The notes: generated from the sequence alone by a model not told the origin. Counted from the first letter of the stretch, positions 19,114-42,686 are shown. The stretch is 64,000 bases of DNA from Candidatus Hydrogenedentota bacterium (GCA_029974275.1 JARKSN010000313.1:2855-66854); one strand, 5' to 3'. A program made the numbers and translations.

Positions 19114-19309
19114 GAACGCCCCGAAACAAAACAGAAAAATCCATTATGCCGTGCAATCCGGCAACGTGCGATCCGCATCATAGTATCCGCACGCCCCACG
19201 GGGCTCAACTTCGTGACGCCCCACGAATGCGCCGCCCGGCGCAGGTGTTATCATCGAGAAAGGCGATCGTCTTTGCATGGCAACCCATAGACGCCAGGAG
19301 GAGGCCCGC

Positions 19310-21460
19310 ATGCGCGCCGCTCGAAACAACACGCCGCCGAATCGGCTTGCCCGTGCGACAAGCCCCTACTTGCGGCAACATGCGCACAATCCCGTGGATT
19401 GGTTTCCGTGGTGCGAAGAAGCGCTGCGAAAAGCGGAGCGCGAGGACAAGCCCATTTTCCTGTCCATCGGCTACTCCGCGTGTCACTGGTGTCATGTCAT
19501 GGAACGAGAGTCCTTTGAAGACAAGGACACCGCGGCGCTGCTCAACGCGCATTTCGTCAGCATCAAGGTTGATCGAGAAGAGCGGCCCGATCTCGACGAG
19601 CTCTACATGAGCGCGGTGCAACTCACGACGCAAAACGGCGGATGGCCCATGTCGGTGTTCCTGACGCCGGAGCGGATGCCGTTCTACTGCGGCACGTATT
19701 TCCCTCCGTCCGATCAGCATGGGCGCCCAGGCTTCCAGACCGTGCTCCGCGCATTGGCGAAGGCGTGGCGAGAACAACGCGACTTCATTCGCGGCAATGC
19801 GCGGCAACTTACCGAATGCCTTCGCCTCGGCGGAGCGGGGCGACCCGAGGAAAGCGCGCCGATACGCCCCGATCTGATCCGCCATGCGGCGGCGGCGCTG
19901 TCCATGAGCTTCGACCCCGAACATGGCGGCTGGGGCGGCGCGCCGAAATTTCCCGCGCCGGCATCGATCGCGACGCTGTTGCGCCACGCCTGGCGTCACG
20001 GAGATTCCCATGCTCTCGCCATGGCCTCGTCCACCTTGGAAGCCATGGCGCGCGGAGGCATTCACGACCATCTTGGCGGCGGCTTCCACCGGTATGCGGT
20101 CGACGCGGCATGGCATGTTCCCCACTTTGAAAAAATGCTCTACGACAATGCGCAACTCGCGGCAGCATATCTCGAAGGATACCAATGCACGAAAAAATCG
20201 CTTTTCCGGGAGACGGCGGAAGGAATTTTTCGGTATGTCCTGCGCGATCTGATTTCTCCGGAAGGCGGTTTCTTTTCCAGCGAAGACGCAGACAGCGACG
20301 GACAGGAAGGGATGTTCTATCTGTGGAAGCGCGATGAATTGGACGCCGTTCTCGGCAAGGACGATGCGGCGCTTTTCGCCCATTGCTATAACGTGCGCCC
20401 CGAGGGAAATTTCGATTCGCCCGAAACGCGCCACGCGGGCATGAACATCCTGCGCCGGGCATGGCCCATCGACCCGCACGAAGCCGTTTTTTGCGGGATG
20501 GAGGCGACCGCGCTGGAGGCAGCGCTGGAGCCGATGCGGACGCGCCTTTTCAACGTCCGCGCCCAACGCGCCCGGCCAGGACGAGACGACAAAGCGATCG
20601 CTTCCTGGAATGGAATGATGATCGCGGCGTTCGCGCGCGGCGCGCAGGCACTCCACGAGCCACGGTATGCCGAAGCGGCCCGGCGCGCCGCCGGGTTCAC
20701 GCTCGAACGCTTGCGTCACGATGGACTGCTGGCGCGCAGTTATCGCGATGGCGCGACAAGCGCGCCGGGCTTCCTGGACGACTATGCCCAGGTCGCTTCG
20801 GCTTTGGTTGACCTGTACGAGACCGAGTTCGATGCGCGTTGGCTGCGCGAGGCCAAGCTGCTTGCCGATCGCATGATCGCGTTGTTTTGGGATCGGGAGG
20901 CAGGCGGCTTTTTCAGCGCGCCCCACGGCCAAGAGGACCTTATCGCGCGACTCAAACCGGTCTACGATACGGCCGAACCTTCTGGCAACGCGGCGGCGGC
21001 GACGCTCCTGCTGCGCCTGGCCGCCTATTTTGATAACGCCGAATACCGGAAAACGGCGGAAATCGTGCTCGAACAAAATGCGGCCCTGCTTGAAACGGTT
21101 CCGCAAGCCATGGGCCGCATGCTCTGCGCGGCAGACCAATATCTGCATCCCCCGACGGAAATCGTGCTGGTCGGACCGCGCTCATGCGCCGACGTCCAGC
21201 GCATGGTGCGCGCATTGCACGAGCATTTTCTTCCGAATAAAGTAGTGGCCTTGGCGGATGCTGAAGACGATGACCCGGTTGCGTCGCGGCGCAGGCCATG
21301 GGCCGCCGTCAACGCCATGCAACGCGGCGCGGCCACGGCGCTTGTATGCAGCGATTTCACGTGCCTGCCGCCGCTGGCTACGCCCGAGGCGCTGGCGCAA
21401 GCGTTGGAAAAAGCCAACGGGAGGACGCACGAATGCGCACATGGATCCTCGTCGGATTGA
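19310..21460 (+). CDS. yyaL: Thioredoxin-domain protein YyaL (DUF255 plus six-hairpin glycosidase-like domain)
   Basis: GGAGGAGG RBS 7 nt before the [26 protein letters not shown]...[19 protein letters not shown] is the DUF255/thioredoxin-like N-terminus of YyaL. About 700 aa. Confidence 0.75.
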
Positions 21461-23166
21461 TCGCGTTGATAGGCGCGGGGCTGCTGGACCGTCCCGTGCA
21501 AGCGCAGTCATCTTCCCCGGCGATGCGCGTCGAAGCGGTTACGCAAACCGACGCCGCTCACCCAGGCTCCCGCCTCGACGTCGCCATCGTCGCCACCCTT
21601 CCCGAAGGCTGGCATACCAACTCCAACGCGCCGCTGGAGGCATTTCTGATACCCACCGAACTCACCGTGACGCCTCCCGCAGGCATTACGGTCGAGCGCA
21701 TCGCGTACCCCGAGGCCAAGCGCGTCACGTTCTCGTTCTCCTCCACGCCTGTCGCCGTGTACGATCGCGAGTTTGTGATGCGAGTGCAGCTGGCCCTTGC
21801 CAAGGACCTGGCTCCCGGCGCATATCTGGCAACGGGCGCGCTGCGCTACCAGGCCTGCAACGATCGCACCTGCGCCCCGCCCAAAACCGTCCCCGTGTCG
21901 ATCGCGGTGAACGTCGTTCCGCCTGATCGCGCCGTGACGCCACAGCGCCCGGAACTGTTCGATCAGCCCCTTTCCGCCGCGCCCGCCGAAACGGGGCGGT
22001 CCGAAGCGCCAACGACGCCGGTCGCGGAGCCTTCCCCCGGCGCCTGGAAAGAACGACTCGAACGTTTCGAGACGATGAGCGTCGGAAGTTTCATGACCGC
22101 CTCCGAATTCTTGCGCTTCCTCGAGGACGCGGAATCGGGGAGAGGGCGATCGGCGACGGGCTTGTTTGAGGGACGCAGCATCGCGACGGTGATCCTCTTG
22201 ACGTTGATCGGCGGTCTCGCGCTGAACCTGACGCCGTGCGTGTTGCCGTTGATTCCCATCAACATCGCGATCATCGGCGCCGGCGCACGCGCCAGTTCGC
22301 GCGGACGCGGCTTCGCTTTGGGCGCGGTGTATGGCGGCGGCATCGCTCTCGTCTACGGCGCGCTCGGACTGATCGTCGTGATCGCCGGAAAGACCTTTGG
22401 CGCGATCAACGCCTCGCCTTGGTTCAACGGCGCGATCGCCGTCGTGTTTGTCGCGCTCGCCTTGGCCATGTTCGACCTGTTCCTAATTGATTTCACCCGC
22501 TTTCAAGCCAAGATCGGCCTCAAGAAAAAAGAAGGCGGCAGCTATCCCGTCGCGTTTTTCATGGGGGGGATATCCGCGCTACTCGCGGGCGCGTGCGTGG
22601 CGCCCGTCGTGATCGCCGTCCTTCTTTTCTCGCAAGACCTGTACGCCAAGGGGTCGTCGGCCGCGTTGCTGCTTCCCTTCCTGTTGGGCGTGGGCATGGC
22701 CTTGCCCTGGCCCTTCGCGGGAGCCGGTCTTTCCTTTCTGCCCAAGCCCGGCAAATGGATGGAGCGCGTCAAATATGCCTTCGGCGTTTTTATCCTGCTC
22801 CTCGCCGGATACTACGGCTACCTGTCCTACAGTCTGTTCACCGCCCGCACTTCCGAAACCACGCACGTGGCCCAAAGCGTCGCCGCCCTCGAAACACACG
22901 GCTGGACCTCGTCGCTCGAAGAAGGTCTTGCCCGCGCCGCTTCCGAGAAGAAACCCGTGGTGATCGATTTCTGGGCCACCTGGTGCAAGAACTGTCAAAT
23001 CATGAACGAGACCACCTTCAAAGACCCTGAAGTTGTCCGCCGTCTCGATCGCTACGTCAAAATCAAATACCAGGCAGAGTCTCCCGACGATCCGCCGCAC
23101 AAGGAAATTCTCGACCGCTTCCGCGCCGTCGGTCTGCCTACAATCGTGGTCCTGCGTCCAAAATGA
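21433..23166 (+). CDS. dsbD: Thiol:disulfide interchange protein DsbD (protein-disulfide reductase)
   Basis: Signal peptide [19 protein letters not shown]-terminal DsbD-alpha domain with [12 protein letters not shown]. Central multi-TM CcdA-like domain. C-terminal thioredoxin [12 protein letters not shown]. Confidence 0.8.
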
Positions 23167-23257
23167 ATCGGGAGCCGGGACTTTTCTTTTGGACACTCAT
23201 GCTCTATAATGTCGCCAATAGCCAGCGGTTCCGATGCCGCGAATGGAGGAACTAGAA

Positions 23258-23824
23258 ATGAACCGAAAGGTGCGCTTGGGTGTCGCCGTATGTGTGTCCA
23301 TGTTGCTTGCCGCGTTCTTGGTCGTCGCCACGCACGCCGACGACGGCGCCACGTACGTCGGCGCCGCCAAGTGCAAGATGTGCCACAACAAAGCCGATGA
23401 GGGGCAAGTGTGGACGAAGTGGCAGGAATCGAAACATGCCAAAGCCTTCGCGACGTTGAAAACGGATGAAGCCAAAGCGGTCGCCGAAAAAGCGGGCGTT
23501 GCCACGGCTCCGTCCGAAGCGCCCGAATGCCTGCGCTGCCACGTGACCGCATATGAGAAAGACAAGCCACTCCCGGCGGACATCAAGATGGAGGACGGCG
23601 TCCAGTGCGAAAGCTGCCACGGCCCTGAGTCCGCGCACTTTGCCGCAGCCAAAAAGGCGCTTGCAGACAAGTCCATTCCCCAAGTCCTTTCGGGCGCGCC
23701 CAAGGAAGAAACGTGCAAGAAATGCCACAATCCGGAGAGTCCGACGTATAAGGAATTCAACTTCAAGTCGTTCTCCGAAAAGATTGCCCATCCCAACCCG
23801 TTGCGAAAGGCCCCCAAATCCTGA
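23258..23824 (+). CDS. Periplasmic tetraheme c-type cytochrome
   Basis: GGAGG RBS. Signal peptide. Four CxxCH motifs (CKMCH, CLRCH, CESCH, CKKCH). Confidence 0.75.
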   Translation: MNRKVRLGVAVCVSMLLAAFLVVATHADDGATYVGAAKCKMCHNKADEGQVWTKWQESKHAKAFATLKTDEAKAVAEKAGVATAPSEAPECLRCHVTAYEKDKPLPADIKMEDGVQCESCHGPESAHFAAAKKALADKSIPQVLSGAPKEETCKKCHNPESPTYKEFNFKSFSEKIAHPNPLRKAPKS

Positions 23825-23995
23825 TCGCGCCGTGACCCGAGCGAAGCTGTCCGTTTGCGTGCGATGCGCGGTTTCCGGAGAGGCCTTCCTTCGCACAGCA
23901 AGCCGAGGCCATGATTTCGCCCGCGCACGCCGCAGCTGTGAGTGAATAACGATTGGGCTGGGTTCCGATCCGGACGACTGGACCATGGAGACGCC

Positions 23996-24643
23996 ATGAA
24001 AACACGCATCCTGCTGTCCGCACTCGTAGTCTGTTCCCTCGGGTGCGATGCCGACAACGTCAAATCCATTACGCAAGCGCGGATGGTTCCCGCGCCCGCA
24101 CTGGCGACGGCGGACGGGACGGCGACGCAAGGATTTCATGCGGCGCACCCCCCTATCGAGGCATCGGGCATGGCGGGATCGCCGCATGCGCGGACGGTTC
24201 CCTTCCGTTGGACCAAGCCCGCTTCCTGGGCCGACATTCCGCCCACGTCCATGCGGCTCGCCAATTTTTCCATTCCTGACCGGCCCCGCGTCGAATGCTA
24301 TATTTCGACGTTGTCGGGCGCGGCGGGGGGCGTCGCCGCAAACGTCAACCGTTGGCGCAACCAGATGGGGCAACCCGATCTCGCCTCCGACGAGATCGCC
24401 GCGTTGCCGACGATCGAGGTGATGGGCAAACCGGCTTCGATGGTCGAGACGACGGGCTCCTACACCGGCATGAAAGGGGCCACCGAACCCAACTACACGT
24501 TGCGCGGCCTTGTCTTGGAATTGCCCGGCCAGGTTCTTTTCGTCAAGATGATTGGTCCAACGGAAGAAGTGGCTGCCTTGAAGGAGGATTTCGTGGCATT
24601 ATGCGCCTCGATCGCCTCCGTTCCGCCGGAAGACGCCCCGTGA
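23996..24643 (+). CDS. Lipoprotein of unknown function, embedded in the cytochrome c maturation cluster
   Basis: MKTRILLSALVVCSLGC lipobox signal. No CxxC motif and no recognised family. Confidence 0.5.
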   Translation: MKTRILLSALVVCSLGCDADNVKSITQARMVPAPALATADGTATQGFHAAHPPIEASGMAGSPHARTVPFRWTKPASWADIPPTSMRLANFSIPDRPRVECYISTLSGAAGGVAANVNRWRNQMGQPDLASDEIAALPTIEVMGKPASMVETTGSYTGMKGATEPNYTLRGLVLELPGQVLFVKMIGPTEEVAALKEDFVALCASIASVPPEDAP

Positions 24644-25809
24644 AGATCATCCTTCAACGCGGGTTTCTCGCCCTTTCCTCGTACGGATTCTCCTGCATAT
24701 TGTTTTTGTTCCTGTTTGTGCTGACCTATCTGGGAACCATCGAACAGGTTACGCACGGCCTGTACGAAACCAGCCGGAAGTATTTCGAGTCCGTTTTTCT
24801 GACGCATTACCTGTGGGGAGTCGTTCCCGTGCCGCTCCCCGGGGCCTACCTCCTGCTCGTCCTGCTTGCCCTCAATCTCGTAGCCTGCGCCTTCGTGCGC
24901 AACCGGCTGAGTTGGGCGCGCACCGGCGTGTTGCTGGCCCATGCAGGCATCTTGCTCTTGCTGCTTGGCGCCTTCCTCTCTTTTCAACGCTCGCAACAGG
25001 GCCAACTGACACTGTACGAAAATGAGCACGCCCATGAATTCCAAAGCTATCAGCAATGGGAGATCGGGCTCTGTCCTCTTGCGAAACCCGGAACGACGGT
25101 GGAAGAGCGCATCATTTCGCCCCGAGATCTCGCCCAGGGGAAGCGGAACGCCCCTGTCTCTTTCGAATTTCCTGGGCTTCCCATCCGCCTTACGGTGTCG
25201 GATTTCGCTAGGAATGCCCGTCCTCAATCCGCAAGCGGATCTTCCGTCGCCGGCAAGGCGATCGACGGCGTCGTATTGACGGCGCTTCCCCCCGCTCGGG
25301 ATGGCGAGACGAATATTCCAGGAGCCTACGTAACCGTGGAGGACCTGTCCAGCGGCGAGCAGCGCGAAGGCATTTTGTGGGGCGCCGCGCGATCCCCGCT
25401 TGCGTTGGAATTGGGCGGCGTCTCCTGGGCGATCGAACTGCGGCGCCAGCGTTGGACCTTGCCTTTCCAGGTGACGCTTGATTCATTCGTCCGGGAGGTC
25501 TATCCGCGCACCTCCATCCCGAAGGTGTTTGAGAGCACAGTGACCGTCCGCGACGGCGATCTCGAGCAGCGTTTCAAGATCGCCATGAATGAGCCGTTGC
25601 GCTACAAGGGCTATACGTTTTTTCAATCCTCCTGGGGGCCGCCGAACGCCGGGCCCAACGATCGGCTCTACTCCACGCTCGCCGTGGTGAAAAATCCGGC
25701 GGAAAAATTCCCCTTGTACGCTTCCGCCGTCATATCCCTGGGCATGTCCATTCACTTCGGGCTGGCGCTCATCCCGCGCCTCAAGAACCGGAGACGGAGG
25801 ACGGCATGA
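24601..25809 (+). CDS. ccsB: Cytochrome c biogenesis protein CcsB/ResB (System II)
   Basis: N-terminal TM helices (FSCILFLFLFVLTYLGTIEQ), a large periplasmic domain, and the C-terminal RYKGYTFFQSSWGP plus final TM helix typical of the ResB family. Start ambiguous: ATG at 24601 overlaps the lipoprotein by 43 nt, or GTG at 24642 overlaps its stop. Confidence 0.7.
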   Translation: MRLDRLRSAGRRPVKIILQRGFLALSSYGFSCILFLFLFVLTYLGTIEQVTHGLYETSRKYFESVFLTHYLWGVVPVPLPGAYLLLVLLALNLVACAFVRNRLSWARTGVLLAHAGILLLLLGAFLSFQRSQQGQLTLYENEHAHEFQSYQQWEIGLCPLAKPGTTVEERIISPRDLAQGKRNAPVSFEFPGLPIRLTVSDFARNARPQSASGSSVAGKAIDGVVLTALPPARDGETNIPGAYVTVEDLSSGEQREGILWGAARSPLALELGGVSWAIELRRQRWTLPFQVTLDSFVREVYPRTSIPKVFESTVTVRDGDLEQRFKIAMNEPLRYKGYTFFQSSWGPPNAGPNDRLYSTLAVVKNPAEKFPLYASAVISLGMSIHFGLALIPRLKNRRRRTA

Positions 25810-27794
25810 GACCTTTGTTTTTCATACGCGTCGCGGCGATTTCCGGGGGGTTGTTTCTGGCATCCGCCGGTCTGGCCGGCACCCAGCCCGTGCAGGATCC
25901 TTCCGCGCCCCCGTCTTGGGATGCGCCAACCGAGCGGCTGTTTTCTTCCCTGCCCATCCAGGACGAGGGACGCATCAAGCCCATGGGGACATTCGCGGCG
26001 TACACGTTGATGAAGTTCAGCGGCAAGCAAACCTGCAAGGACCCGTCCGGGAATACGCTTTCCGCGACCGCTTGGCTTATGCACTGCCTGTTTCATCCGC
26101 GCTATGCGCAGACCTGCAACGTGTTCCGGGTGGACGATTCCGGCGTTATGGTGGCGCTCGGATTGCCGTTTACGCGCAAGCGCGACCTCTACGCGCACCA
26201 GGATCTCGCGCCCGCCGCCGCAAAACTCTCCGCGCTGGCCGAACAATACGCGCATGTGCCCGCCAAACAGCGGACGCCTCTCCAAACTCAACTCCTCAAC
26301 CTGGCCAGCAACGTTCACGATTTCGAATCGCTGCTGGGGGCGATGGACTTTACGGAAGTTTCGTTTACGTTTCCATCTTCCGATCCGCTGGGCGCCCTCT
26401 TTCCCCAAGATCGCCCGTATCGCATCAGCGACGCGCTCGCCAAGTCCGGCGCGATTCGAGCCGCCGTCATCGCGATGCGATCCCAGGCGGGCGCCGAGAA
26501 AGACCAGGATCCCCAGGGGTGGGCCTCGGTGGGCGTTTTGTTGGGAGAAATGGAAAAGATCGCGGCCCACGGCCATGTTCTTGCCCTTTTTCCGCCCCCG
26601 CCGGATTCGGGAGAAAAAGAATGGATGGCTCCTGCCGACGTCGTCGAATGGGCCTTCGATCGCGACGAGGAAGAGCCGTCCGCCGCTCCCATCGCTTTGT
26701 TGCGTTCGCTCGAGGATCTCGCCCTCGCCCGGCATGACGCCGCTGCATTCGCCGCCAACCTACGTCTCTTTCATGACGCCGTCACCCAGATCGCCATGGC
26801 CCGGGGCGAATACGAAAAAGTTCCTCTCGAAAACGCCTACCACCGCGCCAAGCTTTTTCAACGCAGCTTGATGTTGTATATCCTGGCCTTTCTGATCCTC
26901 GCGGCATCCTGGGCATTGCCCAAGCGAATGACCGAGAACACGTTTACGGACGCATTGTTGATGTTCGCCGTGTTTGCGCCCACGGCATGTCTCGGCGCGG
27001 GCATTGTTTTACGTTGCATCATTCGCGAGCGCCCCCCGGTGACGACGCTCTACGAAACCATTCTCTTCGTAACGTTCACGGCGGCGCTTATCGCCCTTCT
27101 CATTGAATTTCTTTCCAAACAACGTTTGGCGCTGTCGCTGGGGGCGATTCTTGGCGTGTTGGGAATGTTTTTGGCCAACAAATACGAAATCGAGGAGGGC
27201 GTGGACACGATGCCCAGCATGGTGGCCGTGCTGGATTCGAATTTCTGGTTGTCCACGCACGTGACCACCATTGCCATCGGGTATGCGGCCGGCCTGCTTG
27301 CGGGGGCCATCGCCCATGTATACCTTTTGGGAAAGCTCATGGGATTTCGGAAAGATGACCCCGTTTTTTATGGGGACATTACGCGCATGGTGTATGGGAC
27401 CTTGTGTTTCAGCTTGTTGTTTTCCGTGATTGGCACCGTGCTGGGCGGCGTCTGGGCCAACGAAAGCTGGGGCCGCTTCTGGGGATGGGACCCCAAGGAA
27501 AACGGGGCCCTTCTTATCGTTCTCTGGCAATTGGCCCTTCTCCATGCGCGATTGGGAGGTTATCTTCGCGATCACGGCGTCAACATGGGGGCGGTTTTTG
27601 GCGGCATTGTCGTCGCTTTCTCTTGGTTTGGGGTGAATTTGCTGGGCGTCGGCTTGCATAGCTATGGGTTTGCCACAGGAACCCATCGCGCCTTGCTGCT
27701 TTTCTACGCCGTCGAGGGCGTGGCGCTTTTGTTGGGCTGGGTGGCATGGCTGCGCTCGGACAGCGGATCCGCCGGGCAAAGCGCGAAGACATAG
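25806..27794 (+). CDS. ccsA: Cytochrome c-type biogenesis protein CcsA/ResC (System II heme lyase subunit) with large N-terminal periplasmic extension
   Basis: Start overlaps the ccsB stop (ATGA). C-terminal WGRFWGWDPKENGALLIVLW tryptophan-rich WWD heme-handling motif and conserved His-containing TM helices. 662 aa. Confidence 0.8.
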   Translation: MRPLFFIRVAAISGGLFLASAGLAGTQPVQDPSAPPSWDAPTERLFSSLPIQDEGRIKPMGTFAAYTLMKFSGKQTCKDPSGNTLSATAWLMHCLFHPRYAQTCNVFRVDDSGVMVALGLPFTRKRDLYAHQDLAPAAAKLSALAEQYAHVPAKQRTPLQTQLLNLASNVHDFESLLGAMDFTEVSFTFPSSDPLGALFPQDRPYRISDALAKSGAIRAAVIAMRSQAGAEKDQDPQGWASVGVLLGEMEKIAAHGHVLALFPPPPDSGEKEWMAPADVVEWAFDRDEEEPSAAPIALLRSLEDLALARHDAAAFAANLRLFHDAVTQIAMARGEYEKVPLENAYHRAKLFQRSLMLYILAFLILAASWALPKRMTENTFTDALLMFAVFAPTACLGAGIVLRCIIRERPPVTTLYETILFVTFTAALIALLIEFLSKQRLALSLGAILGVLGMFLANKYEIEEGVDTMPSMVAVLDSNFWLSTHVTTIAIGYAAGLLAGAIAHVYLLGKLMGFRKDDPVFYGDITRMVYGTLCFSLLFSVIGTVLGGVWANESWGRFWGWDPKENGALLIVLWQLALLHARLGGYLRDHGVNMGAVFGGIVVAFSWFGVNLLGVGLHSYGFATGTHRALLLFYAVEGVALLLGWVAWLRSDSGSAGQSAKT

Positions 27795-27881: not shown

Positions 27882-27910
27882 TTTACAAGTTTCATGAAAT
27901 GCACTACAAT
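27882..27910 (+). promoter_or_regulatory. Sigma-70-like promoter upstream of the multiheme cytochrome / beta-barrel cassette
   Basis: TTTACA - 17 nt - TACAAT, in the 425-nt gap between ccsA and the first cytochrome gene. Predicts an about 300-nt leader containing a GGCGTTTTC...GAAAACGCC inverted repeat. Confidence 0.4.
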
Positions 27911-28219: not shown

Positions 28220-30784
28220 ATGAAACGTCGGATCGCAGCGCCTATAATCTCTCTTCTGGCAACGGGGATGCTTGCGCTTGGAGTGGGGGGATGCGGCCTG
28301 GTCGTGGTGTCGCCTTCCGTGGCGTCGTTGAAGGTTGGTCAGACCGTGGGGCTGACCGCGAGCGGCACGTCGGACACGAGTTTCACGTGGCGCACCTCGA
28401 ATCCGGCCGTGGCTTCGGTAAGTGAGGGCGGGGTGGTGACGGCGCTGGCGATTGGGTCGGCCCGCATCACGGCGACCGGCAACGCTTCCGGTCAAGTGGG
28501 GAGCGCCGTCATCAACGTCGTGCCGTTTGTGGCGCGCGTCACGGTCGTTCCGGACGCGGCTTCCCTGGAGGCAGGCAAGACCTTGGCGCTGGCGGTTTCC
28601 TCGAATGATCCCCTTGACGCGAATTTTGAATGGGTTTCCAGCGATACGGCCGTTGCGACGGTCGACGCTTCCGGCGTGGTGACGGGGGCGGCTTCAGGAA
28701 TGGCCGTCATTTCGGCCACGGGCGTTCATAGCGGTGCGGGCGCCAAGGGGACATGCTCGATCACGGTCACCCCGCGCGTCATTCTTCCCCCTGTTGCGAA
28801 CGCGGGCGTCAGCGGAACGGCTTCCTACAACACCACGGTCGCGTTGGACGGGTCGTTGAGCAGCGATCCGCAGAGTTTGACGTTGACCTATGCGTGGACG
28901 CAGACTTCGGGGCCTGCGGCGACGCTTACGGGGGCGACGACGAACAAGCCTTCCTTCAAGCCTGCGCAACCGGGGTCGTACGTGTTTGAGCTGGTTGTGA
29001 ACAACGGGACCTTGTCCAGCGCTCCCGCGACGGTCACGATCACGGCGGTGAACAATCCCCCTGCGGCGGCCATAGCGATTGACGCCATTTCGGATATCGA
29101 GCGGCAGTACCTGGGGTTGGAAAGCACCTTGTCGAGCGGCTTGTCCAATGTCGGCGTCGGCACGGACGTGTATTTGCTGGGATCGGCCACGGACATCAAC
29201 GGCGATGCCATCGTCGGGTTTCAGTGGTCGATCGTGTCGCGCCCTGCCGGCTCCCTGGCGGCGTTGACCACCCCCACGGAGGCGGACACGGCGTTTCGCC
29301 CGGATGTCGCTGGCACGTATCGGATTTCGCTGATCGCTTCCGACGGTCTGAAAGCGGCGGGGGCCGCCGCCACGCAGGATATTCACGCGGGCTTCTGGGT
29401 CGGCGAAGGCACCGACGTTGGCCAGAGCGCCTGTGCGCCGTGTCACAACGGCACGGTCGCGCCGGACAAGACCACGGAGTGGCTGGGCACCAAACACGCC
29501 ATCACGTTTGCCAATCGGATTGATGGGCTGTACGGTCCGACGTATCCCGAGTATTGCCGCCGCTGTCATACGGTTGGGTATGACAAAACCGGCACGGCGG
29601 CAAACAATGGATTCGACGACGTGGCGGCGTCGGTAGGCTGGACGCTTCCCGGCACGCTACAGCCGGGCAATTGGGCGGCCCTGATCGCCGACACGCCGCA
29701 GTTGGCGCGTCTGGCGAATGTCCAATGCGAGAATTGTCATGGCCCGGCGAGCCAGCATGTGGCCGGGGCGGCGTTCACGCGCGACAAGAAGATGTCGGTT
29801 TCCTTCGGCAGCGGCAACTGCGGCATGTGTCATGGACAGGAAGAGGAATGGAAGCTGACCGGTCATGCGGACGAAAACGCGGAGCCGTGGACGATGCCGG
29901 TGGGGCCGTCTCGGACGGCGTGTGTGCGATGCCATTCGGGGGTGGGTTTTATCGACACGATTGGCGGGGTCACGCCGGCGCGCACGACCAAGCAGAATCC
30001 CACGTGCGCGGTGTGTCATGATCCCCACAGCGACGCCCACGAAGCCCAGTTGCGTTTGGGGGATGAGGTCACCTTGCCGGGCAACGTGCGCGTGACGGGG
30101 GTCGGGCCGAACGCGGTATGCATGTATTGCCACAACGCGCGGCGGGCTCCGGCGGACGCCCTCGCTGGGTCCTATCCGCATTACAGCACCGCGTCGGAGA
30201 TGGTCCTGGGGGTCAATGGGATCACCTATTCCAACGGTCCCATTCCCAATTCGCCGCATACCTTGATGAAGACGGGATGCGTGGACTGTCATATGGCGCC
30301 GACGCCGGGCGTGGAACGCGACAATGTGCATCAGCCGGGCGAGGGCGTGGTGGGGGCGCATACCTTGGCAATCACCGCTCGAACCTCCGATCCGGCAAGC
30401 CCGGATTATGGGTTTGAGAACGTGCAGCACGCATGCAACACGGCGGGGTGCCATGACAAGAGCCCCATCGTCGCGGTGAATCGCACGGCGTATGGAGATT
30501 ATGATGGCGATGGCGCGATCGAGGGCGTCCAGGATGAGGTGCGGGATTTGATGGCGCTGGTGAAGACCGCGATCGTGAACAGCGGGGTGACGGCGCTTGC
30601 CAACAACCCCTACTGGGCCAACGTCACCACCAATGCCCAGCGCAGGGCCATTTACAACTATTCCCTGGCAAAGGGCGATGGCAGTTACGGCATTCACAAT
30701 ACGGGTTTCGTGGTTGGATTGCTCCAGTTGTCCTACAAAGATTTGAAGGGGCATGACGTTCCGGGGGCGACGCTCCGGTATTGA
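28220..30784 (+). CDS. Outer-surface lipoprotein multiheme c-type cytochrome with three N-terminal bacterial Ig-like (Big_2) domains (8 CxxCH plus one CX4CH)
   Basis: Lipobox LALGVGGCG. Three Big_2-like repeats (TSNPAVASVSEGGVVTALAIGSARITATG; SSDTAVATVDASGVVTGAASGMAVISATG). Heme motifs CAPCH, CRRCH, CENCH, CGMCH, CVRCH, CAVCH, CMYCH, CVDCH plus C-terminal CNTAGCH. Confidence 0.8.
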   Translation: MKRRIAAPIISLLATGMLALGVGGCGLVVVSPSVASLKVGQTVGLTASGTSDTSFTWRTSNPAVASVSEGGVVTALAIGSARITATGNASGQVGSAVINVVPFVARVTVVPDAASLEAGKTLALAVSSNDPLDANFEWVSSDTAVATVDASGVVTGAASGMAVISATGVHSGAGAKGTCSITVTPRVILPPVANAGVSGTASYNTTVALDGSLSSDPQSLTLTYAWTQTSGPAATLTGATTNKPSFKPAQPGSYVFELVVNNGTLSSAPATVTITAVNNPPAAAIAIDAISDIERQYLGLESTLSSGLSNVGVGTDVYLLGSATDINGDAIVGFQWSIVSRPAGSLAALTTPTEADTAFRPDVAGTYRISLIASDGLKAAGAAATQDIHAGFWVGEGTDVGQSACAPCHNGTVAPDKTTEWLGTKHAITFANRIDGLYGPTYPEYCRRCHTVGYDKTGTAANNGFDDVAASVGWTLPGTLQPGNWAALIADTPQLARLANVQCENCHGPASQHVAGAAFTRDKKMSVSFGSGNCGMCHGQEEEWKLTGHADENAEPWTMPVGPSRTACVRCHSGVGFIDTIGGVTPARTTKQNPTCAVCHDPHSDAHEAQLRLGDEVTLPGNVRVTGVGPNAVCMYCHNARRAPADALAGSYPHYSTASEMVLGVNGITYSNGPIPNSPHTLMKTGCVDCHMAPTPGVERDNVHQPGEGVVGAHTLAITARTSDPASPDYGFENVQHACNTAGCHDKSPIVAVNRTAYGDYDGDGAIEGVQDEVRDLMALVKTAIVNSGVTALANNPYWANVTTNAQRRAIYNYSLAKGDGSYGIHNTGFVVGLLQLSYKDLKGHDVPGATLRY

Positions 30785-30848
30785 GCGCAGGTTTTCCAGG
30801 GGCGCGAAGGGGCGGCGTGCGTGCGGGACATAACGTGAGAATGGCGGC

Positions 30849-31646
30849 ATGAACGTGATGTGGAAATCGCTGGCGGTTCCGGCAGGACTGTTGGGTTTTG
30901 TCGTGGCGAGTTCTCTGGGCGCGCAACAGTGCGGCGGGCCGGCCACGGTGGGAACGGGGGTTTGCATCGCGTGTCATGACGGGCGTTCCGCCACGGACCA
31001 ACTCGATTTTCTGGTCAGCCAGCATGCCGGCATCGAGTGCGAAGCCTGCCACGGACCGGGCTACGTGCATGTACGCAATGGCGGACGCGGCGGACGGTTC
31101 ATCAAAAACCCCGCCAAGGAGTCATTCGCGAACGCGTATCGGCTTTGCACCGCTTGCCATGCGGAGCAGGTGGCTGGTTTTCTGGCGAGCGGTCACGGCC
31201 AGAAACAGGCGGCGACGTGCCATGACTGTCACGACGTGCATGCGCCCGGCGGCGCCCGACGCAATCCGAACAACAACGAGATGTGTCTGACATGCCATGC
31301 GCCGTTCGGATTTTCGGACAGCGCGGCCATCGAGGCGCATACGATGTATCATCCGAATGATCCGGGGGGGACGGGCGCGAGTCGTTGCATCTCCTGTCAC
31401 ATGCCGCCGTTGGACGCGATCCTTCAGGCAGACGGCCCGCATGATCACACGCTGGCGACGATCCCGCCGATTCGTTCCAACGAGGCCGCGCAGGCGGGCG
31501 CGGTTCCGACGCCGCCCAATTCGTGTTCGGGCATCGCGGGCTGTCACGATGGTTCCGTGCCCGGCGCGCCGATTTTTGACGTCGACAATTTCACCTTTAA
31601 CGGCATACTCCAATCGCTCTATGAGCAGGTGGGTCAGATGCCGTAA
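30849..31646 (+). CDS. Periplasmic multiheme c-type cytochrome (6 CxxCH plus one CX5CH)
   Basis: Signal peptide MNVMWKSLAVPAGLLGFVVASSLGAQQ. Motifs CIACH, CEACH, CTACH, CHDCH, CLTCH, CISCH and C-terminal CSGIAGCH. Confidence 0.8.
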   Translation: MNVMWKSLAVPAGLLGFVVASSLGAQQCGGPATVGTGVCIACHDGRSATDQLDFLVSQHAGIECEACHGPGYVHVRNGGRGGRFIKNPAKESFANAYRLCTACHAEQVAGFLASGHGQKQAATCHDCHDVHAPGGARRNPNNNEMCLTCHAPFGFSDSAAIEAHTMYHPNDPGGTGASRCISCHMPPLDAILQADGPHDHTLATIPPIRSNEAAQAGAVPTPPNSCSGIAGCHDGSVPGAPIFDVDNFTFNGILQSLYEQVGQMP

Positions 31647-31673
31647 CGCGGCGGTCCGGGAACGGTCGGGGTC

Positions 31674-33302
31674 GTGATCCGGCGGCGCATGGCGGAGGCG
31701 GGGAGACGCACGGTGGGAGTTGAGCACGCATTTCGATGGCGGTGGGCGTTGGCAGGCGTTGTCCTATGGGGTTTCGTGATCGGCGCTTCCGCACGCGCCG
31801 CGGATCAAGGAGACGACGCTTCTTCGGAAGCCGGGCAGGAAACCCTTCAGGCGCCGCGCGCGGCTGCTCCTGAATCGACCGCGGGGGATGAAAAGCCCGA
31901 GAAGACGCCGAAGAAGTGGTTGCGGGGCAGCTTTGAAACCGGTCTGGACGCCGCATGGTCGGACCGGGATTCGGACATCAATCTGGATCAAACCTTGCGC
32001 GTGAAGATTGACCCGCCGAATCATGAGCGGATTCATATTCGCGCATCGTTGTGGCTGCGGGAAGACCTTGACGGCGACGAGTCGCGGACGAGCGGCTTGC
32101 GCGATGTCGACGACGCCTACGGGTCGAGCGTTCGGTTTCGTCCGCTATACATGTATGTGGACGTGGACGATCTCTGGGGCGATTCCACGTTGCGCCTCGG
32201 CCGGCAACGCATCCAGGAAGGAACGGCCTGGAACCGGATCGACGGCCTTTACTTCAAACAGCGCGCGGCGTGGGGGGACTGGTATGTTTTCGCAGGCGCG
32301 CGGGCTTCCTTGTACACAGACGCGCACAGGGATTTCGCGGGCGGCGGCGGCGTCTCGTTCCGCCCGGCCCCGGCGACGCGGATAGCGCTGGACGGGTATT
32401 ACGGCACGGAGCGCGATCGCGATCGCGATGAGACGTTTTTCTGGCCGTTGGCGTGGGGCGCCTGGTTCAACCTCGCCTCGCCGAGGGCGGTCCCGGACGA
32501 TCGGGAAGACCATCAGATATCGCTGAGCGCGTGGCAAGCGGTCGGCGCGCATCTCATGCTGTATGGCCGTCTCACGGAGCAAAGCGGCGCGTTTCACAGC
32601 GCGCTCCTCAGCGCGACGGGAACCATCCCCGCGTGGAACCTCACCTACGAGGCGGCCTACCGCGCCCAGACCGACGCCATTGGGGATCGACTGCGCGATC
32701 TGGGCGGTTTTTACCAGACCGTGGGGCGCCGCGACAAGCGCCAGGACTTTCGGATCGCCTTGCATCGCCCGCTGACGGAAAAATGGACGCTTTCGCTGGA
32801 AAGCGAATTTCGCCGAAGCGACGCCCATGCTTCCGGTTTCGGCAATCGCGATTATGATCGTTACGCGGCGATCCTGTCGGCGGAAAAGCTGCGGGGCGGC
32901 ATCGACGCCACCGTCGGTCTCGCGTGGTGGCGCACCGATCGCGATCAGGGGTCGACGGCCGTCACGGCGGAGGTTGCCAAGAAATGGAGCCGCCTTTCGC
33001 TGGCGTTGGGGGCTGATTTCGAGCGATACGAGGACCGGATTGTTTATCATCCCCTGTCGTTTTGGGCGGACCAATTCACGCCGGGGACGATCTTCGGCGC
33101 GTATCCATTCGTCAATCGTTTGCTGTATCTCGCGGATGGCGTGGCGATCGACACGCGCGAAAACGTGCGGTCGATCTACGGAAAGGCCAAATGGACCGTC
33201 CGGCCTGACCATGACGTGAACGCGCGCGTCTCGTACGAGACGGACAGCGAGCCGGATTCGCCGTACTGGCGGGTGCAGATGGGATATGTCGTTCGTTTCT
33301 AA
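31674..33302 (+). CDS. Outer-membrane beta-barrel protein (porin-like), candidate porin component of a porin-cytochrome complex
   Basis: Signal peptide ending ASARA. About 500 aa of alternating amphipathic beta-strand-like segments rich in Tyr, Trp, Arg and Asp. Terminates YVVRF: a C-terminal aromatic Phe is the classic BAM recognition signature of OM beta-barrels. Lies between multiheme cytochrome genes. Start may be M6 at 31689. Confidence 0.6.
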   Translation: MIRRRMAEAGRRTVGVEHAFRWRWALAGVVLWGFVIGASARAADQGDDASSEAGQETLQAPRAAAPESTAGDEKPEKTPKKWLRGSFETGLDAAWSDRDSDINLDQTLRVKIDPPNHERIHIRASLWLREDLDGDESRTSGLRDVDDAYGSSVRFRPLYMYVDVDDLWGDSTLRLGRQRIQEGTAWNRIDGLYFKQRAAWGDWYVFAGARASLYTDAHRDFAGGGGVSFRPAPATRIALDGYYGTERDRDRDETFFWPLAWGAWFNLASPRAVPDDREDHQISLSAWQAVGAHLMLYGRLTEQSGAFHSALLSATGTIPAWNLTYEAAYRAQTDAIGDRLRDLGGFYQTVGRRDKRQDFRIALHRPLTEKWTLSLESEFRRSDAHASGFGNRDYDRYAAILSAEKLRGGIDATVGLAWWRTDRDQGSTAVTAEVAKKWSRLSLALGADFERYEDRIVYHPLSFWADQFTPGTIFGAYPFVNRLLYLADGVAIDTRENVRSIYGKAKWTVRPDHDVNARVSYETDSEPDSPYWRVQMGYVVRF

Positions 33303-33321
33303 CGCGAAGGAGTGTGCTGCG

Positions 33322-34344
33322 ATGCCGCGCCGCAACGGAAAGCTATGGTTGATGACGGGCCTGCTCGTTGCGCTTGCGGGCGCGTGCATGACGTATTCGG
33401 TGACTTCCTTGGCGCGCAAGGACCGCGGTATCCGCGCCCACCATGCCCAGCACGCCAAGGAAGGGCTGGCCTGCGCCGACTGCCACGCTTTCGACAAGGG
33501 GGAGGCTGTTTTTCCCGGTCATGACACCTGCAGCGCCTGCCACGAGGTCGACGCCGAGCTCACGCCCGGCAAGGCGTGCGAGAAATGCCATACGAAGGAG
33601 GGCTACGCGATCGAGCGCTATGTCAAGCGCGTGCGGGATGAAGTGAAATTCGCGCATCCGGTTCATCTTGCCAAAGGCATCGAATGCGCCGTCTGCCATG
33701 CCGATCCCGACAAGTCCCTGCTGTCGACCGGATCGCTGAAACCGTTCTGCATGGACTGCCATGGCAAGACCGATCCCGCGCTGAATGCTTGCGAGACCTG
33801 TCACGCCGTCATCAACAAGACCGTCCGCCCGACGGAACGCGGCGGAGTCCGCTTGGCGCACGATGCCCCCGCCATTTGGGAACGCGTGCATGGCCGCGAG
33901 TCGCGGGTCGATCCGAAATACTGCGCGTTGTGCCACGACCAGGAGGATGATTGCGAGGATTGTCACCGCAAGACGCCTCCCCGGGATCATACCGTGGCGT
34001 GGCGTCGCGACGGGCACGGCCTGCGCGCCCAATGGGATATCGAGAAATGCTCCACCTGTCATGAAGAAGACATGTGCATCAAGTGTCACCGGAACGCCGC
34101 GCCGCGATCGCACGCCGCCGGGTGGGGAAGCCCCGCCAATCTTCATTGCGCGACATGCCATTATCCGCCTGCGGGGGAAGGATGCGTGACGTGTCATGAG
34201 ACCGTCTCGCATGCGACGGCCATGCCGTCGCCGCATGATATGGGCATTTTCCCGCCAAAATGCGGCCGCTGTCATCCCGGAGGATTGCCCAATCGCGCGC
34301 CCCACATCATGAACGGCAGCGCGCGCTGCGCCGTTTGCCACTGA
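33322..34344 (+). CDS. Multiheme c-type cytochrome, 14 CxxCH motifs (c7-polymer-like)
   Basis: Signal peptide MPRRNGKLWLMTGLLVALAGAC (lipobox-like). CADCH, CSACH, CEKCH, CAVCH, CMDCH, CETCH, CALCH, CEDCH, CSTCH, CIKCH, CATCH, CVTCH, CGRCH, CAVCH: one heme per about 24 residues. Overlaps the barrel gene by 17 nt if started at 33286. Confidence 0.8.
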   Translation: MPRRNGKLWLMTGLLVALAGACMTYSVTSLARKDRGIRAHHAQHAKEGLACADCHAFDKGEAVFPGHDTCSACHEVDAELTPGKACEKCHTKEGYAIERYVKRVRDEVKFAHPVHLAKGIECAVCHADPDKSLLSTGSLKPFCMDCHGKTDPALNACETCHAVINKTVRPTERGGVRLAHDAPAIWERVHGRESRVDPKYCALCHDQEDDCEDCHRKTPPRDHTVAWRRDGHGLRAQWDIEKCSTCHEEDMCIKCHRNAAPRSHAAGWGSPANLHCATCHYPPAGEGCVTCHETVSHATAMPSPHDMGIFPPKCGRCHPGGLPNRAPHIMNGSARCAVCH

Positions 34345-34654
34345 GAGCGCCGCCTGCCGTTCCCGTGGCGTGACGGTTCCGCGCGAAAGATATCCGGGCG
34401 CAGCGTTCAAGCGCTCGGCCCAGCTGCAGGTTCTGTTGCGCATGTTCCCAAGGACGCCAACGGCCTCGGTCGCGGGAAGAGCCGTGGCGGCGGCGCTCCT
34501 TCCTCTGGAACCCGCAGGCGTGGAATCGTACAATGCCCCGCGAGAGAGACCCGTGGGGGAAAACGCTGAACCATGTTTGCCAGGAGCGCCGCCGAGCACA
34601 TGATAGCCGGCCTTTGTGGTCATGCCGTTGGATTGCGCGCCGGGGCGCCGCCGC

Positions 34655-36109
34655 ATGACTGATATCGGACGGCATGGGCGCAACATCGCGTGGCTTGCGT
34701 TGGCCGATCTTTTTGGCAAGGCGTGCGGCGTATTCTATTTCGCCTACCTTTCGCGAAGTCTGTCCGTGATCGAGAATGGATGGTACGGGACATTCATCGC
34801 CGCCATTCCGATACTCAGCACGCTGAATACGCTCGGGTTTCAGGACATCGTGACGCGGGAGACGTCCCGGGACCGCGGTCGCGTTCACGCGCTCATGGGG
34901 TCGGGCATGGCGACGCAGCTGGGTCTTTTCGTGGTTCTGCTCCCGGCGGTCTGGGGCGTGTCCGTGTGGCTGGGCTACGATCCGTCTCTTCGTTTCGTCA
35001 TCGCGTTGGCGGCGCTGGCGGCCCTTGAACGGGCGCTGATCTCGATGCATGCCGCCGTAATCGCCGCGCACGAACGCTTCAAATACGCCAGCATCGTCGC
35101 GATTTTCACGCGGTCGGCAACGGTGGCGGGCGGCATAGGCTTGCTGTACTTGGGCTATGGGCTCAAGGGCATTCTCTGTTTCACCCTCGGCGTTTTTGTC
35201 ATGGAACTGCTGCTTACGTACGTTGCGGTTCGCCGGAAATGCGTGAACTATCGCCTCGTGTATCGTCTTTCCGACGTGCGCTTTCTCCTGCGCGAGGGAT
35301 CGGGGATGGCGTCGGGGCGCCTTGTGTCGGTACTATATTACAGTATGGACATGTTTGTCCTCAACGCCTTGGTTTCCGGCGAGGAAGTGGGTTATTTTGC
35401 GGTGGGGACCCGGTTTCTGGCGCTGCTTTGGACGTTTCCCGATCTCTTGGAGAGCGTTTCCTATCCCATTTTGAGCCGCAAGGCGCTCGAGGGGGAGGCG
35501 TCGCAGCATTTCGCTTTTTTGCGGTTGGTCAAGGGGATGACGCTGATTGGGTTTCCGATGGCATGCGGCATGTCGGCGCTTTCCGAGGGGGTGGTGGCCA
35601 CGTTGTGCGGCGCCAAGTTCATTCCCGGAGCGGCGGCGGCGGCGGTCTTGACGTGGGTGCTTGCGTTGGAAATGCTGATGCGGATTCCCACGGTGTATTT
35701 GCGCGCCCGTTCGTGTTTTGCGGCCGTCACGCGCTGCTACGCCTTGGGCGTCGCGATAAAGCTTCCGTTGGCATGGCTGCTCGTTCCTCGGCTGGGCGTC
35801 AACAGCTTTCTGGCAATCAGCGTCCTGGCCTCCTGCATCATGTCTGTGGTCATTTTTCGAAGCGTGCGCTCCGTGTTGCCGGCTCTTTTTTGGCGCGAGG
35901 TTTTCGTGACGGCGGGCAAGCCTTTGATCGCTGCGATCGCGATGGCGGCCATGCTGTGGCCGATGAGGGACCTGTCGGTTTTCCTCACCGTGCCGGCGGG
36001 AGCGATCGGGTATGGCGTTGTTTTTGCCGCATTGGGCGGGATCGATCCGTTCGATCTTTCCTTTCTGCGCCAGCTGCTTGTCCGAAAAGGCGGCCGGGAA
36101 GCGGCGTAA
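34655..36109 (+). CDS. Polysaccharide/oligosaccharide flippase (Wzx/MOP superfamily)
   Basis: About 12 predicted TM helices. Overall similarity to O-antigen/teichoic acid flippases (LADLFGKACGVFYFAYLSRSLSV...). Start could be 34616. Confidence 0.65.
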   Translation: MTDIGRHGRNIAWLALADLFGKACGVFYFAYLSRSLSVIENGWYGTFIAAIPILSTLNTLGFQDIVTRETSRDRGRVHALMGSGMATQLGLFVVLLPAVWGVSVWLGYDPSLRFVIALAALAALERALISMHAAVIAAHERFKYASIVAIFTRSATVAGGIGLLYLGYGLKGILCFTLGVFVMELLLTYVAVRRKCVNYRLVYRLSDVRFLLREGSGMASGRLVSVLYYSMDMFVLNALVSGEEVGYFAVGTRFLALLWTFPDLLESVSYPILSRKALEGEASQHFAFLRLVKGMTLIGFPMACGMSALSEGVVATLCGAKFIPGAAAAAVLTWVLALEMLMRIPTVYLRARSCFAAVTRCYALGVAIKLPLAWLLVPRLGVNSFLAISVLASCIMSVVIFRSVRSVLPALFWREVFVTAGKPLIAAIAMAAMLWPMRDLSVFLTVPAGAIGYGVVFAALGGIDPFDLSFLRQLLVRKGGREAA

Positions 36110-41683: not shown

Positions 41684-42547
41684 TCATGCCTGCGCGAAAT
41701 GCTTCGCCTCCATGCGCTTCAAGAAGGCCAGTCCCTCGCGCAACAAGTCATCGCTTGAAGACGCAAGTCGGCGCCAGATGCACGTGGCCGCCGCCATCGC
41801 CGGCGAGACCTCGCAGAAAGATTCGAGGCCCGCCACGCCGGCGTATCCGGCCTCCGCCAAGGCCCCGAAGATGCCGTCCCAATCGACGACGCCCGTGCCG
41901 GGCGCGCCGCGATGACTCTCGCTGAGGTGGAAATGGCACAAATACGGCGCGGCTTTTTGCGTGGGGCCGCGAAAATCGGCCTCCTCGATGTTCATGTGGT
42001 ATGCGTCGAGATGAACGGCCACGTTCGGTTCGCCGATCAGCTCTCGTAGTCGCAACGCTTGATCGCAGGTGTTGACCAGGAACGACTCGTACCGGTTGAT
42101 GGGCTCAATGCCGACGGTCACGCCCAAGTCCCGGGCGTGCCGCGCCGTTTCCTTCAATGCCGCCGCCGCCCAATCCCAATGCCGCTGCTCCGGAAAACCG
42201 GTTATTCTCCGTCCTATGGCCGAATAAACAACCCCGGAAAAGGTCGTCGCGCCCATCCTGGCCGTCGCCTCGACGCACGCCTTGAGATACTCCACGCTGC
42301 GCCGCCGCACGCCTGGATCATCCGCCGTCGGATCGGTCGCTTCGCTGCACGCTGTCGACGCGCACACCCCGATGCCGGCGTCCGCCGCCGCCGCCCGAAT
42401 GGCCGCCGCATCGATCTTTTCGATCTCCATCAACGGAATCTCGATGAGATCAAACCCCAACGCCTTGGCATGCGCGATTAAATGCAGCGTCTCGTTCGAC
42501 CAGCTTGTCGTCCATGCATACGCATGGACCGCGTACCGAATCCCCAT
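41684..42547 (-). CDS. Sugar phosphate isomerase/epimerase (xylose-isomerase-like TIM barrel)
   Basis: MGIRYAVHAYAW...GFDLIEIPL...GIEPINRYES...HLDAYHMNIEE: AP-endonuclease-2/xylose-isomerase-like TIM-barrel metal ligands. Upstream ORF-track extension discarded. Confidence 0.7.
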   Translation of the reverse strand: MGIRYAVHAYAWTTSWSNETLHLIAHAKALGFDLIEIPLMEIEKIDAAAIRAAAADAGIGVCASTACSEATDPTADDPGVRRRSVEYLKACVEATARMGATTFSGVVYSAIGRRITGFPEQRHWDWAAAALKETARHARDLGVTVGIEPINRYESFLVNTCDQALRLRELIGEPNVAVHLDAYHMNIEEADFRGPTQKAAPYLCHFHLSESHRGAPGTGVVDWDGIFGALAEAGYAGVAGLESFCEVSPAMAAATCIWRRLASSSDDLLREGLAFLKRMEAKHFAQA

Positions 42548-42686
42548 GACTCCCTTCCCTTTCCGCCCCCCCGATCGACCCATCGGAAAACCCCATGCCG
42601 CATAAACTATCCGCTCTTCCAGGGCTCCTGTCAAGAACGGACCCTGCCGGTTGACGCGTTCGGAACGCGCCGGTAAACTGCGCCCT

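Follow-up and report, generated by a model that had tools for sequence, protein, structure and literature searches.

A four-gene cassette from Candidatus Hydrogenedentota that probably encodes a new version of the porin-cytochrome electron conduit

A cassette of four genes, g1 to g4, on the plus strand of a 64,000-nucleotide stretch of DNA from a Candidatus Hydrogenedentota bacterium (hereafter, the window) probably encodes a porin-cytochrome (Pcc)-type conduit for electrons across the outer membrane; we put the probability of this reading at about three in four. Such conduits are a known kind of machine; this one would be a new version, from an uncultured group that has been little studied and is probably the Hydrogenedentota. 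The same reading was offered in a preliminary description of this DNA, and it gains support from the finding that the barrel gene of the cassette (g3) is kept beside multihaem cytochrome genes in 39 of 39 related loci and in 5 of 5 remote relatives.

The cassette occupies positions 28220-34344 (+), where open reading frame (ORF) calling and translation agree with the preliminary description in placing four genes of the same direction. g1 (28220-30784, +) encodes an 854-residue lipoprotein cytochrome with immunoglobulin (Ig)-like domains and an OcwA-like nonahaem domain, as judged by translation, motifs, Pfam and an OcwA match; g2 (30849-31646, +), by motifs and profile matches, a 265-residue MtrA/NrfB-type cytochrome with a signal peptide that is probably heptahaem; g3 (31674-33302, +, as the longest ORF, 542 residues) a predicted 22-strand outer-membrane beta-barrel; and g4 (33286-34344, +, as the longest ORF, 352 residues) a 14-haem lipoprotein cytochrome of the c7-repeat type. 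The start of g3 is more likely the ATG at 31689, the 99%-identical database protein having 537 residues. Likewise g4 more likely starts at the ATG at 33322, which gives 340 residues: a Shine-Dalgarno sequence AAGGAG read from the DNA at 33307-33312 (+) lies 9 nucleotides before this ATG, and a database protein that is 100% identical (P0335) also has 340 residues. The 17-nucleotide g3/g4 overlap of the preliminary description is therefore probably an artefact of the over-long g4 ORF and is replaced by a 19-nucleotide gap. The gene 3' of g4 encodes a Wzx-type flippase, and the cassette is therefore taken to be four genes ending at 34344.

The barrel gene and its 14-haem partner

What kind of protein does g3 encode? 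Its 542-residue ORF has the signal peptide and the C-terminal YVVRF previously ascribed to it, and contains no cysteine. It matched no Pfam or NCBIfam family, including MtrB/PioB, Plug, TonB_dep_Rec, DUF560 and usher. An AlphaFold2 model built on a 42-sequence alignment (mean predicted local distance difference test score [pLDDT] 79.7, predicted template modelling score [pTM] 0.73) consists of a signal-peptide helix, a disordered linker rich in acidic residues and proline, and a barrel of 22 beta-strands; it lacks a plug and periplasmic domains. Four long loops follow strands 3, 9, 13 and 19 of the model; since all these strands are odd-numbered the loops lie on one face, as expected for the extracellular loops of an outer-membrane protein. 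An exhaustive profile search with g3 retrieved 533 clusters at E<1e-3, including 356 at E<1e-10. A C-terminal phenylalanine is the usual outer-membrane assembly signal, and 129 of the 148 retrieved representatives of the g3 family have one. Because of the plug-less 22-strand model and these outer-membrane features, g3 is predicted to be neither a soluble protein nor an ordinary porin of 16-18 strands, and the outer-membrane barrel first proposed is borne out by the model.

The close homologues of g3 number 66; all are unannotated or hypothetical, and they come mostly from Candidatus Hydrogenedentota metagenome-assembled genomes. One of ten remote relatives of the barrel is named, as a 'hypothetical protein' of a deltaproteobacterium. 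The NCBI name of another homologue, P0006, is TonB-dependent receptor. Receptors of that kind combine a 22-strand barrel with an N-terminal plug domain and a TonB box. We rejected this function for g3, which has no plug, no Plug or TonB_dep_Rec match, and a disordered acidic N-terminus. P0200 and P0306 resemble fusions of a barrel with a cytochrome but have the appearance of frameshifted gene calls, and we left them out of the evidence. The remote relative P0297 (1123 residues) combines a ResB-like N-terminal half and a barrel in one predicted polypeptide, which is either a real fusion or a gene-calling artefact.

A neighbourhood scan limited to one genome per species gave the 39 related loci, in which the closest relative of g3 is about 50% identical. 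By their contig labels, which are unchecked, most of these loci are from Hydrogenedentota, with some from Nitrospiraceae and the Fibrobacteres-Chlorobi-Bacteroidetes (FCB) group and one from Bathyarchaeia. Wherever the contig reaches, the same triad is found: a cytochrome of about 280-390 residues with 6 or 8 CxxCH motifs, the barrel, and a cytochrome of about 340-400 residues with 14 CxxCH motifs. Next to more remote relatives of the barrel (E 1e-66 to 3e-23), the following gene is a 12-14-haem homologue of g4 (27-38% identity) in all five cases examined, and is often trailed in turn by a gene for a decahaem lipoprotein. Two such loci (L043 and L045) run barrel, 13-haem g4-like lipoprotein, 10-haem lipoprotein, with no g2. 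This order is that of MtrB, the analogue of MtrA, and MtrC, and the L043 decahaem protein passes the OmcA/MtrC model TIGR03507 (238.5 bits; cutoff 209.3). Because the remote clusters keep the barrel and the g4-like gene without g2, g4 appears from gene order to be the barrel's obligate partner, and g2 to be an addition in Hydrogenedentota-type clusters and their nearest relatives.

Motif counting confirmed that g4 has 14 haem sites, at one haem per ~24 residues. All 14 are CxxCH and are invariant, and the g4 family has 14 conserved distal histidines for the 14 haems. The CxxCK motif is absent from all four proteins of the cassette. Taken together, the 14 distal histidines and the lack of CxxCK therefore make g4 look like a wire and not an enzyme. 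The protein has the lipobox LAGAC, and a PROSITE-type lipobox is present in 31 of 36 orthologues. The best 120 matches in a g4 profile search are all close orthologues; the family profile also matches ActA (6lod, 9e-17) and GSU1996 (3ov0, 2e-16). ActA is part of Alternative Complex III. In its profile match (~1e-16), its similar haem density and its all-bis-histidine ligation, g4 thus resembles ActA and the 'nanowire' cytochromes of c7 repeats typified by GSU1996, but differs from them in having 14 haems, a lipobox and a strict link to an outer-membrane barrel, and in not being part of a quinol oxidase.

The MtrA-type and OcwA-like cytochromes

The preliminary description called the g2 product a heptahaem cytochrome with a signal peptide. 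The signal peptide stands, but motif counting gives six CxxCH sites only, the seventh haem site being CSGIAGCH, of the atypical form CX5CH (31524-31547, +). The surrounding motif PNSC[AS]Gxx[GA]CHD is invariant in 35 of 35 orthologues, as are seven histidines outside the haem motifs; the invariant CX5CH and the seven extra histidines therefore support seven bis-histidine haems in g2. Some orthologues have 8 haems. Cys28 of g2 is also invariant, and 23 of the 35 orthologues have a PROSITE-type lipobox.

When the g2 family profile was compared with solved proteins the best match was MtrA (6r2q_A, E 3.2e-19), followed by NrfB (5.5e-9). Scored with the DmsE/MtrA model TIGR03508, g2 reaches 54.8 bits (cutoff 192.2) over model positions 1-152 only and so is a non-member; its NCBIfam matches to DmsE and to the GSU2203 decahaem protein are partial and below cutoff. 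Judged by these profiles, g2 is homologous to MtrA without belonging to the MtrA/DmsE family. It had been claimed that no element of the cassette is a simple orthologue of known conduit components. No orthologue was indeed found, but the unrelatedness so implied was too strong since the homology of g2 to MtrA is detectable.

The g1 protein has a signal peptide with the predicted PROSITE-type lipobox TGMLALGVGGC, in which Cys25 would be the lipidation cysteine. The preliminary description gave it three Big_2 domains; Pfam instead finds four Ig-like modules in residues ~29-380, namely two Big_2 (2.8e-18) and two K319L-like_PKD (5.6e-18). The nonahaem domain (residues ~395-854) contains, by motif count and as described before, eight CxxCH sites and one CX4CH. 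This atypical ninth site, CNTAGCH (30434-30454, +), is invariant at C350, C355 and H356 (haem-domain numbering) in 11 of 11 homologues. The family has about seven conserved non-motif histidines and one methionine for its nine haems.

The C-terminal 465 residues of g1 align collinearly, in four segments (E 1.6e-13), with OcwA (PDB 6I5B), and the alignment spans the N-terminal, middle and C-terminal helical parts. OcwA is a nonahaem cell-surface terminal reductase of Thermincola potens with a c554-like and an NrfA-like part (PMC6703420). In cytochromes of this type the c554-like part is tetrahaem, the NrfA-like part pentahaem, and a helical bundle forms the C-terminus. g1 also matches Pfam Cytochrome_C554, and it has no match to TIGR03507 (OmcA/MtrC) or to the NrfA-type NCBIfam models. 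On the strength of the alignment, g1 is considered a homologue of OcwA, a surface reductase of Gram-positive bacteria. The two have in common nine haem sites, a c554-like N-terminal part, a CVDCHM motif and a C-terminal helical DGSxGxHN motif. Unlike OcwA, g1 comes from a diderm, is predicted to be lipidated, carries four N-terminal Ig-like domains, has CX4CH as its ninth site and is encoded beside an outer-membrane barrel. OcwA-type proteins have two five-coordinate haems with distal His-His pockets. Of the two pocket motifs of OcwA, one aligns with His-Tyr in g1, whereas the other lies where the alignment edge is uncertain.

Only two database proteins (98% and 49% identical to g1) have the Ig-like domains and the haem domain together. 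Other homologues of the haem domain bear different appendages, including type IX secretion system (T9SS) sorting tails in Calditrichaeota, a point in favour of an extracellular position. A second Hydrogenedentota genome has its g1 orthologue not beside the triad but beside NapC-like and CbcL-like genes, and there is no barrel within 8 kb of P0166, a verrucomicrobial homologue of the haem domain. On a Calditrichaeota contig (L047, 5514-14871) the gene for an OcwA-like protein with a T9SS tail (P0071) is flanked by those for a NapC/NirT cytochrome and a Fur regulator. Next to it is the gene for another multihaem protein with a T9SS tail, which has CBM9/EB_dh domains, and no barrel is nearby. This arrangement suggests another way of placing cytochromes on the surface.

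Additional cytochromes adjoin the triad in sister Hydrogenedentota loci (L033:6243-8318, minus strand; L033:13222-14664; L003:3199-8341; L001:15696-16970, minus strand). They comprise a full-length OmcA/MtrC-family decahaem lipoprotein (470 bits), an NrfH-like 5-haem membrane protein, a c554-like tetrahaem protein, a 13-haem protein, and CbcL-like fusions of an 11- or 19-haem cytochrome c with an FdnI-type cytochrome b. Taken at the level of sequence, these proteins together appear to span the whole path by which electrons could pass from quinol to the outside of the cell. In most sister genomes g1 is replaced by an OmcA/MtrC decahaem, whereas the barrel and g4 remain paired.

The proposed conduit and its alternatives

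If the cassette encodes a conduit, g3 would be its insulating sheath and g4, an all-bis-histidine wire, most likely threads the barrel in the role of MtrA or OmaB, as the analogy with the three-gene remote clusters suggests. The heptahaem g2 would be an adaptor docking at one mouth of the barrel, and g1, held off the membrane on its four Ig-like domains, would be the exposed terminal oxidoreductase and a swappable surface reductase, all four proteins making a single complex. Acceptors for g1 would be insoluble or macromolecular, for example Fe(III)/Mn(IV) oxides, humic substances, electrodes or partner cells. Electrons would be supplied by quinol-oxidizing inner-membrane cytochromes encoded elsewhere in the genome (NrfH-like and CbcL-like genes adjoin the triad in related genomes), and the adjacent System II genes described below would attach the ~30 haems. 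The preliminary description had envisaged a periplasmic cytochrome, a barrel and a surface lipoprotein. The conduit reading itself is supported, but the partner conserved with the barrel is g4 and not g2, and g4 and most g2 orthologues have lipoprotein signals as well.

How does this arrangement compare with known systems? Published criteria for such conduits are a porin of 18-22 strands, a partner of 5-14 haems and a lipoprotein cytochrome (PMC4245776, PMC6148476). Under the definitions given in Shi et al. 2014 and Jimenez Otero et al. 2018, the cassette has a barrel in the ~18-22-strand range (22), adjacent exported cytochromes in the 5-14-haem range (g4 with 14, g2 with 6+1) and predicted redox lipoproteins (the g1 and g4 lipoboxes); its assignment to the Pcc type is by these operational criteria and not by sequence homology. 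None of the curated NCBIfam models for the Geobacter OmbB/OmaB/OmcB or Ext proteins matched, and the proteins fall outside the MtrB/PioB (26-28 strands), MtrA/DmsE (TIGR03508) and OmcA/MtrC (TIGR03507) families.

The closest parallels are with the Geobacter Pcc systems OmbB-OmaB-OmcB, ExtABCD and ExtEFG (PMC4282303, PMC4245776, PMC6148476). The 22 strands of g3 compare with the 18-22 predicted there, the barrel gene is followed by that of a haem-dense partner, as omb is by oma, and the cluster includes lipoprotein cytochrome(s). Partners of up to 14 haems are found in the clusters of Ignavibacterium, Kuenenia and Anaeromyxobacter, and atypical CXnCH motifs occur in outer cytochromes of Pcc systems as they do in g1. 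Surface cytochromes of Geobacter are swapped non-orthologously (PMC6148476), as g1 and OmcA/MtrC are here among sister loci. The cassette differs from Pcc systems in the extra MtrA/NrfB-like g2 before the barrel, in a partner (g4) that is itself a lipoprotein, and in an OcwA-like surface component with Ig-like domains. A further difference is the CX5CH site in the small cytochrome g2, whereas Shi et al. found atypical motifs in outer cytochromes only.

With Shewanella MtrCAB (PDB 6R2Q) the cassette shares a three-part logic, the MtrA likeness of g2, and true OmcA/MtrC-family decahaem proteins in sister and remote loci. In contrast to MtrCAB, g3 has 22 strands, not 26, and no MtrB/PioB match, g2 has 7 haems instead of 10, g1 is not of the OmcA/MtrC family, and the conserved partner of the barrel is the c7-type g4 and not the MtrA-like g2. 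The 'novel porin-multihaem cytochrome' clusters of Verrucomicrobia (He et al. 2017, PMC5615132) also come from uncultured freshwater heterotrophs; in these a porin of at least 20 strands stands beside a cytochrome with 8 haems, and some of the clusters also include a multihaem cytochrome that is extracellular. Points of contact with the cassette are the 8-haem g2 orthologues and the verrucomicrobial origin of P0166. The comparison is at the level of the published description, which includes no 14-haem partner.

Several observations weigh against a conduit. Searching PDB sequences with the g3 profile gave zero matches, MtrB included, and the fold match of the g3 model is generic to large barrels, the best being the barrel of a TonB-dependent receptor; the superposition on Cir extends through the barrel part only. 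The C-terminal half of the apo model of g4 is of low quality (pLDDT 69), and the model has no fold matches. The lipobox of the window's own g2 is non-canonical, with Gln at -1, and with three putative lipoproteins it is ambiguous on which side of the membrane each cytochrome lies. The window itself contains no gene for an inner-membrane quinol oxidase. Proteins of the OcwA family slowly reduce nitrite and hydroxylamine in vitro (PMC6703420). Finally, the lifestyles that published Hydrogenedentota surveys describe are aerobic and fermentative and do not include extracellular electron transfer (PMC11406978).

Could the same hardware run inward, passing electrons from extracellular Fe(II), reduced humic substances, a cathode or a syntrophic partner to the respiratory chain? 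MtoAB and PioAB are conduits that do so. Porin-cytochrome conduits are bidirectional in principle and Mtr-type homologues serve Fe(II) oxidizers (PMC6148476, PMC4245776); moreover, oxygen reductases, a possible sink, are present in most Hydrogenedentota genomes (PMC11406978), and Cyc2-type iron oxidase homologues are reported for the group (PMC9769843). We nevertheless consider inward flow unlikely. Characterized Fe(II)-oxidizing conduits are usually without a large surface cytochrome (PMC4245776), whereas the cassette has g1 and sister loci have OmcA/MtrC, and both OcwA and OmcA/MtrC are characterized as terminal reductases (PMC6703420). Also, the NrfH-like and CbcL-like modules that neighbour the triad resemble the quinol oxidases of metal reducers.

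Alternatively, the cytochromes might form a periplasmic or surface catalytic reductase of the NrfA or octahaem type, acting on nitrite, hydroxylamine, sulfite or tetrathionate, with the barrel as a porin for substrate or product. Consistent with this, g1 belongs through OcwA to the c554/NrfA/octahaem superfamily, and OcwA has in vitro activity on nitrite and hydroxylamine (PMC6703420); the ~7 conserved non-motif histidines and the methionine for nine g1 haems make open-site haems possible, and g2 has weak matches to NrfB and NrfH. That said, OcwA turns over nitrite about once a minute, which is very much slower than NrfA (PMC6703420), CxxCK is lacking, g4 is all bis-histidine, and a 22-strand plug-less barrel is much bigger than known substrate porins. 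The exchange of g1 for OmcA/MtrC decahaems in sister loci beside a constant barrel-g4 pair, the Ig-like stalk of g1 and the T9SS tails of its homologues also speak against a catalytic complex, which we regard as most unlikely. The absence of CxxCK, the bis-histidine g4 wire, and sister loci that hold OmcA/MtrC and NrfH/CbcL-type modules all support the preliminary view that the cytochromes are not subunits of a soluble reductase.

That the barrel is a Slam- or usher-like translocon or assembly factor exporting the neighbouring cytochromes to the surface, all three of which are predicted or likely lipoproteins, is scarcely credible, given that g3 has no Slam (DUF560) or usher domain, or indeed any Pfam match, that its model lacks plug and periplasmic domains, and that its strict one-to-one pairing with a 12-14-haem wire over deep divergence is what would be expected of a stable complex.

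Neighbouring genes and significance

The cassette lies directly downstream of a System II cytochrome c maturation locus (21298-27794, +), as the preliminary description had it. Pfam identifies a DsbD/CcdA-type thiol reductant transporter (21298-23166, +; DsbD_TM, 2.7e-40), ResB/CcsB (24295-25809, +; ResB, 1.2e-16) and a long CcsA of 662 residues (25806-27794, +; Cytochrom_C_asm, 1e-22, at residues 414-618 only). These genes are upstream of g1 and accessory, and are probably not on the same transcript. Further upstream is a gene for a DsbH-like thioredoxin with a weak GH76-like C-terminal match (19277-21460, +); its longest ORF and that of DsbD overlap by ~160 nucleotides, and the DsbD start is probably more downstream. 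In at least 10 of the 39 loci (L002, L005, L016, L017, L020, L024, L028, L029, L036 and L038), a homologue of ResB, of CcsA or of both is found no more than 10 kb from the triad.

We advance, tentatively and as a joint proposal that is more doubtful than not, two further readings. The barrel and 14-haem wire may be the core of an unrecognized conduit family spread across many phyla, the profile search having retrieved ~530 clusters at 50% identity; if true, the ability to respire extracellularly would be widespread in the heterotrophic candidate phylum Hydrogenedentota. ResB and the long CcsA, in turn, may be a dedicated lyase for the CX5CH site of g2 and the CX4CH site of g1, by analogy with the specialized CcsA isoenzymes of Wolinella.

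The 425-nucleotide gap preceding g1 contains a candidate operon promoter, a sigma-70-like TTTACA-17-TACAAT (10/12; 27882-27910, +), for which the evidence is weak, and a scan for intrinsic terminators 3' of g4 found no convincing site. Apart from g1, g2 and g4, the ORFs of at least 150 residues in the window have one CxxCH at most. Long ORFs on the opposite strand across the cassette (such as 33343-34719, minus) were dismissed as shadow ORFs of GC-rich DNA, the plus-strand products having homologues and domains. Elsewhere, the window holds a second outer-membrane barrel gene (7227-8804, +), which has no relation to the cytochrome cluster and falls in the AlgE-like 'Alginate export' family (Pfam E 3.3e-35); a gene for a secreted protein of 1000 residues with cohesin, bacterial surface Ig-like and IPT/TIG domains (845-3847, minus); three big ORFs of 778, 623 and 736 residues without a Pfam match at E<=1e-5 (42450-49855); and tRNA-Ser(GGA) (52986-53078, minus), its sole RNA gene by Rfam and ARAGORN.

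Our search of the literature on Hydrogenedentota together with multihaem cytochromes, extracellular electron transfer or porin-cytochrome systems found no description of a conduit, only mentions of Cyc2. The genome survey of the group reports oxygen reductases and [FeFe]-hydrogenases, with multihaem cytochromes unmentioned (PMC11406978).

Outer-membrane conduits decide which bacteria respire minerals, humic substances and electrodes. To our knowledge, none has been characterized beyond the Mtr family and a small number of Geobacter systems. The barrel and 14-haem pair described here is conserved, is without a curated family model, and occurs in at least 39 genomes at species level, most of which bear the label Hydrogenedentota, with remote relatives elsewhere. 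The four-gene cassette is compact and so suits heterologous testing, and it includes a diderm, Ig-domain-bearing version of the Gram-positive reductase OcwA. Its invariant CX4CH and CX5CH sites, beside a maturation system, offer a handle on atypical haem attachment. If functional, the conduit would add an anaerobic respiratory option for a globally distributed group.

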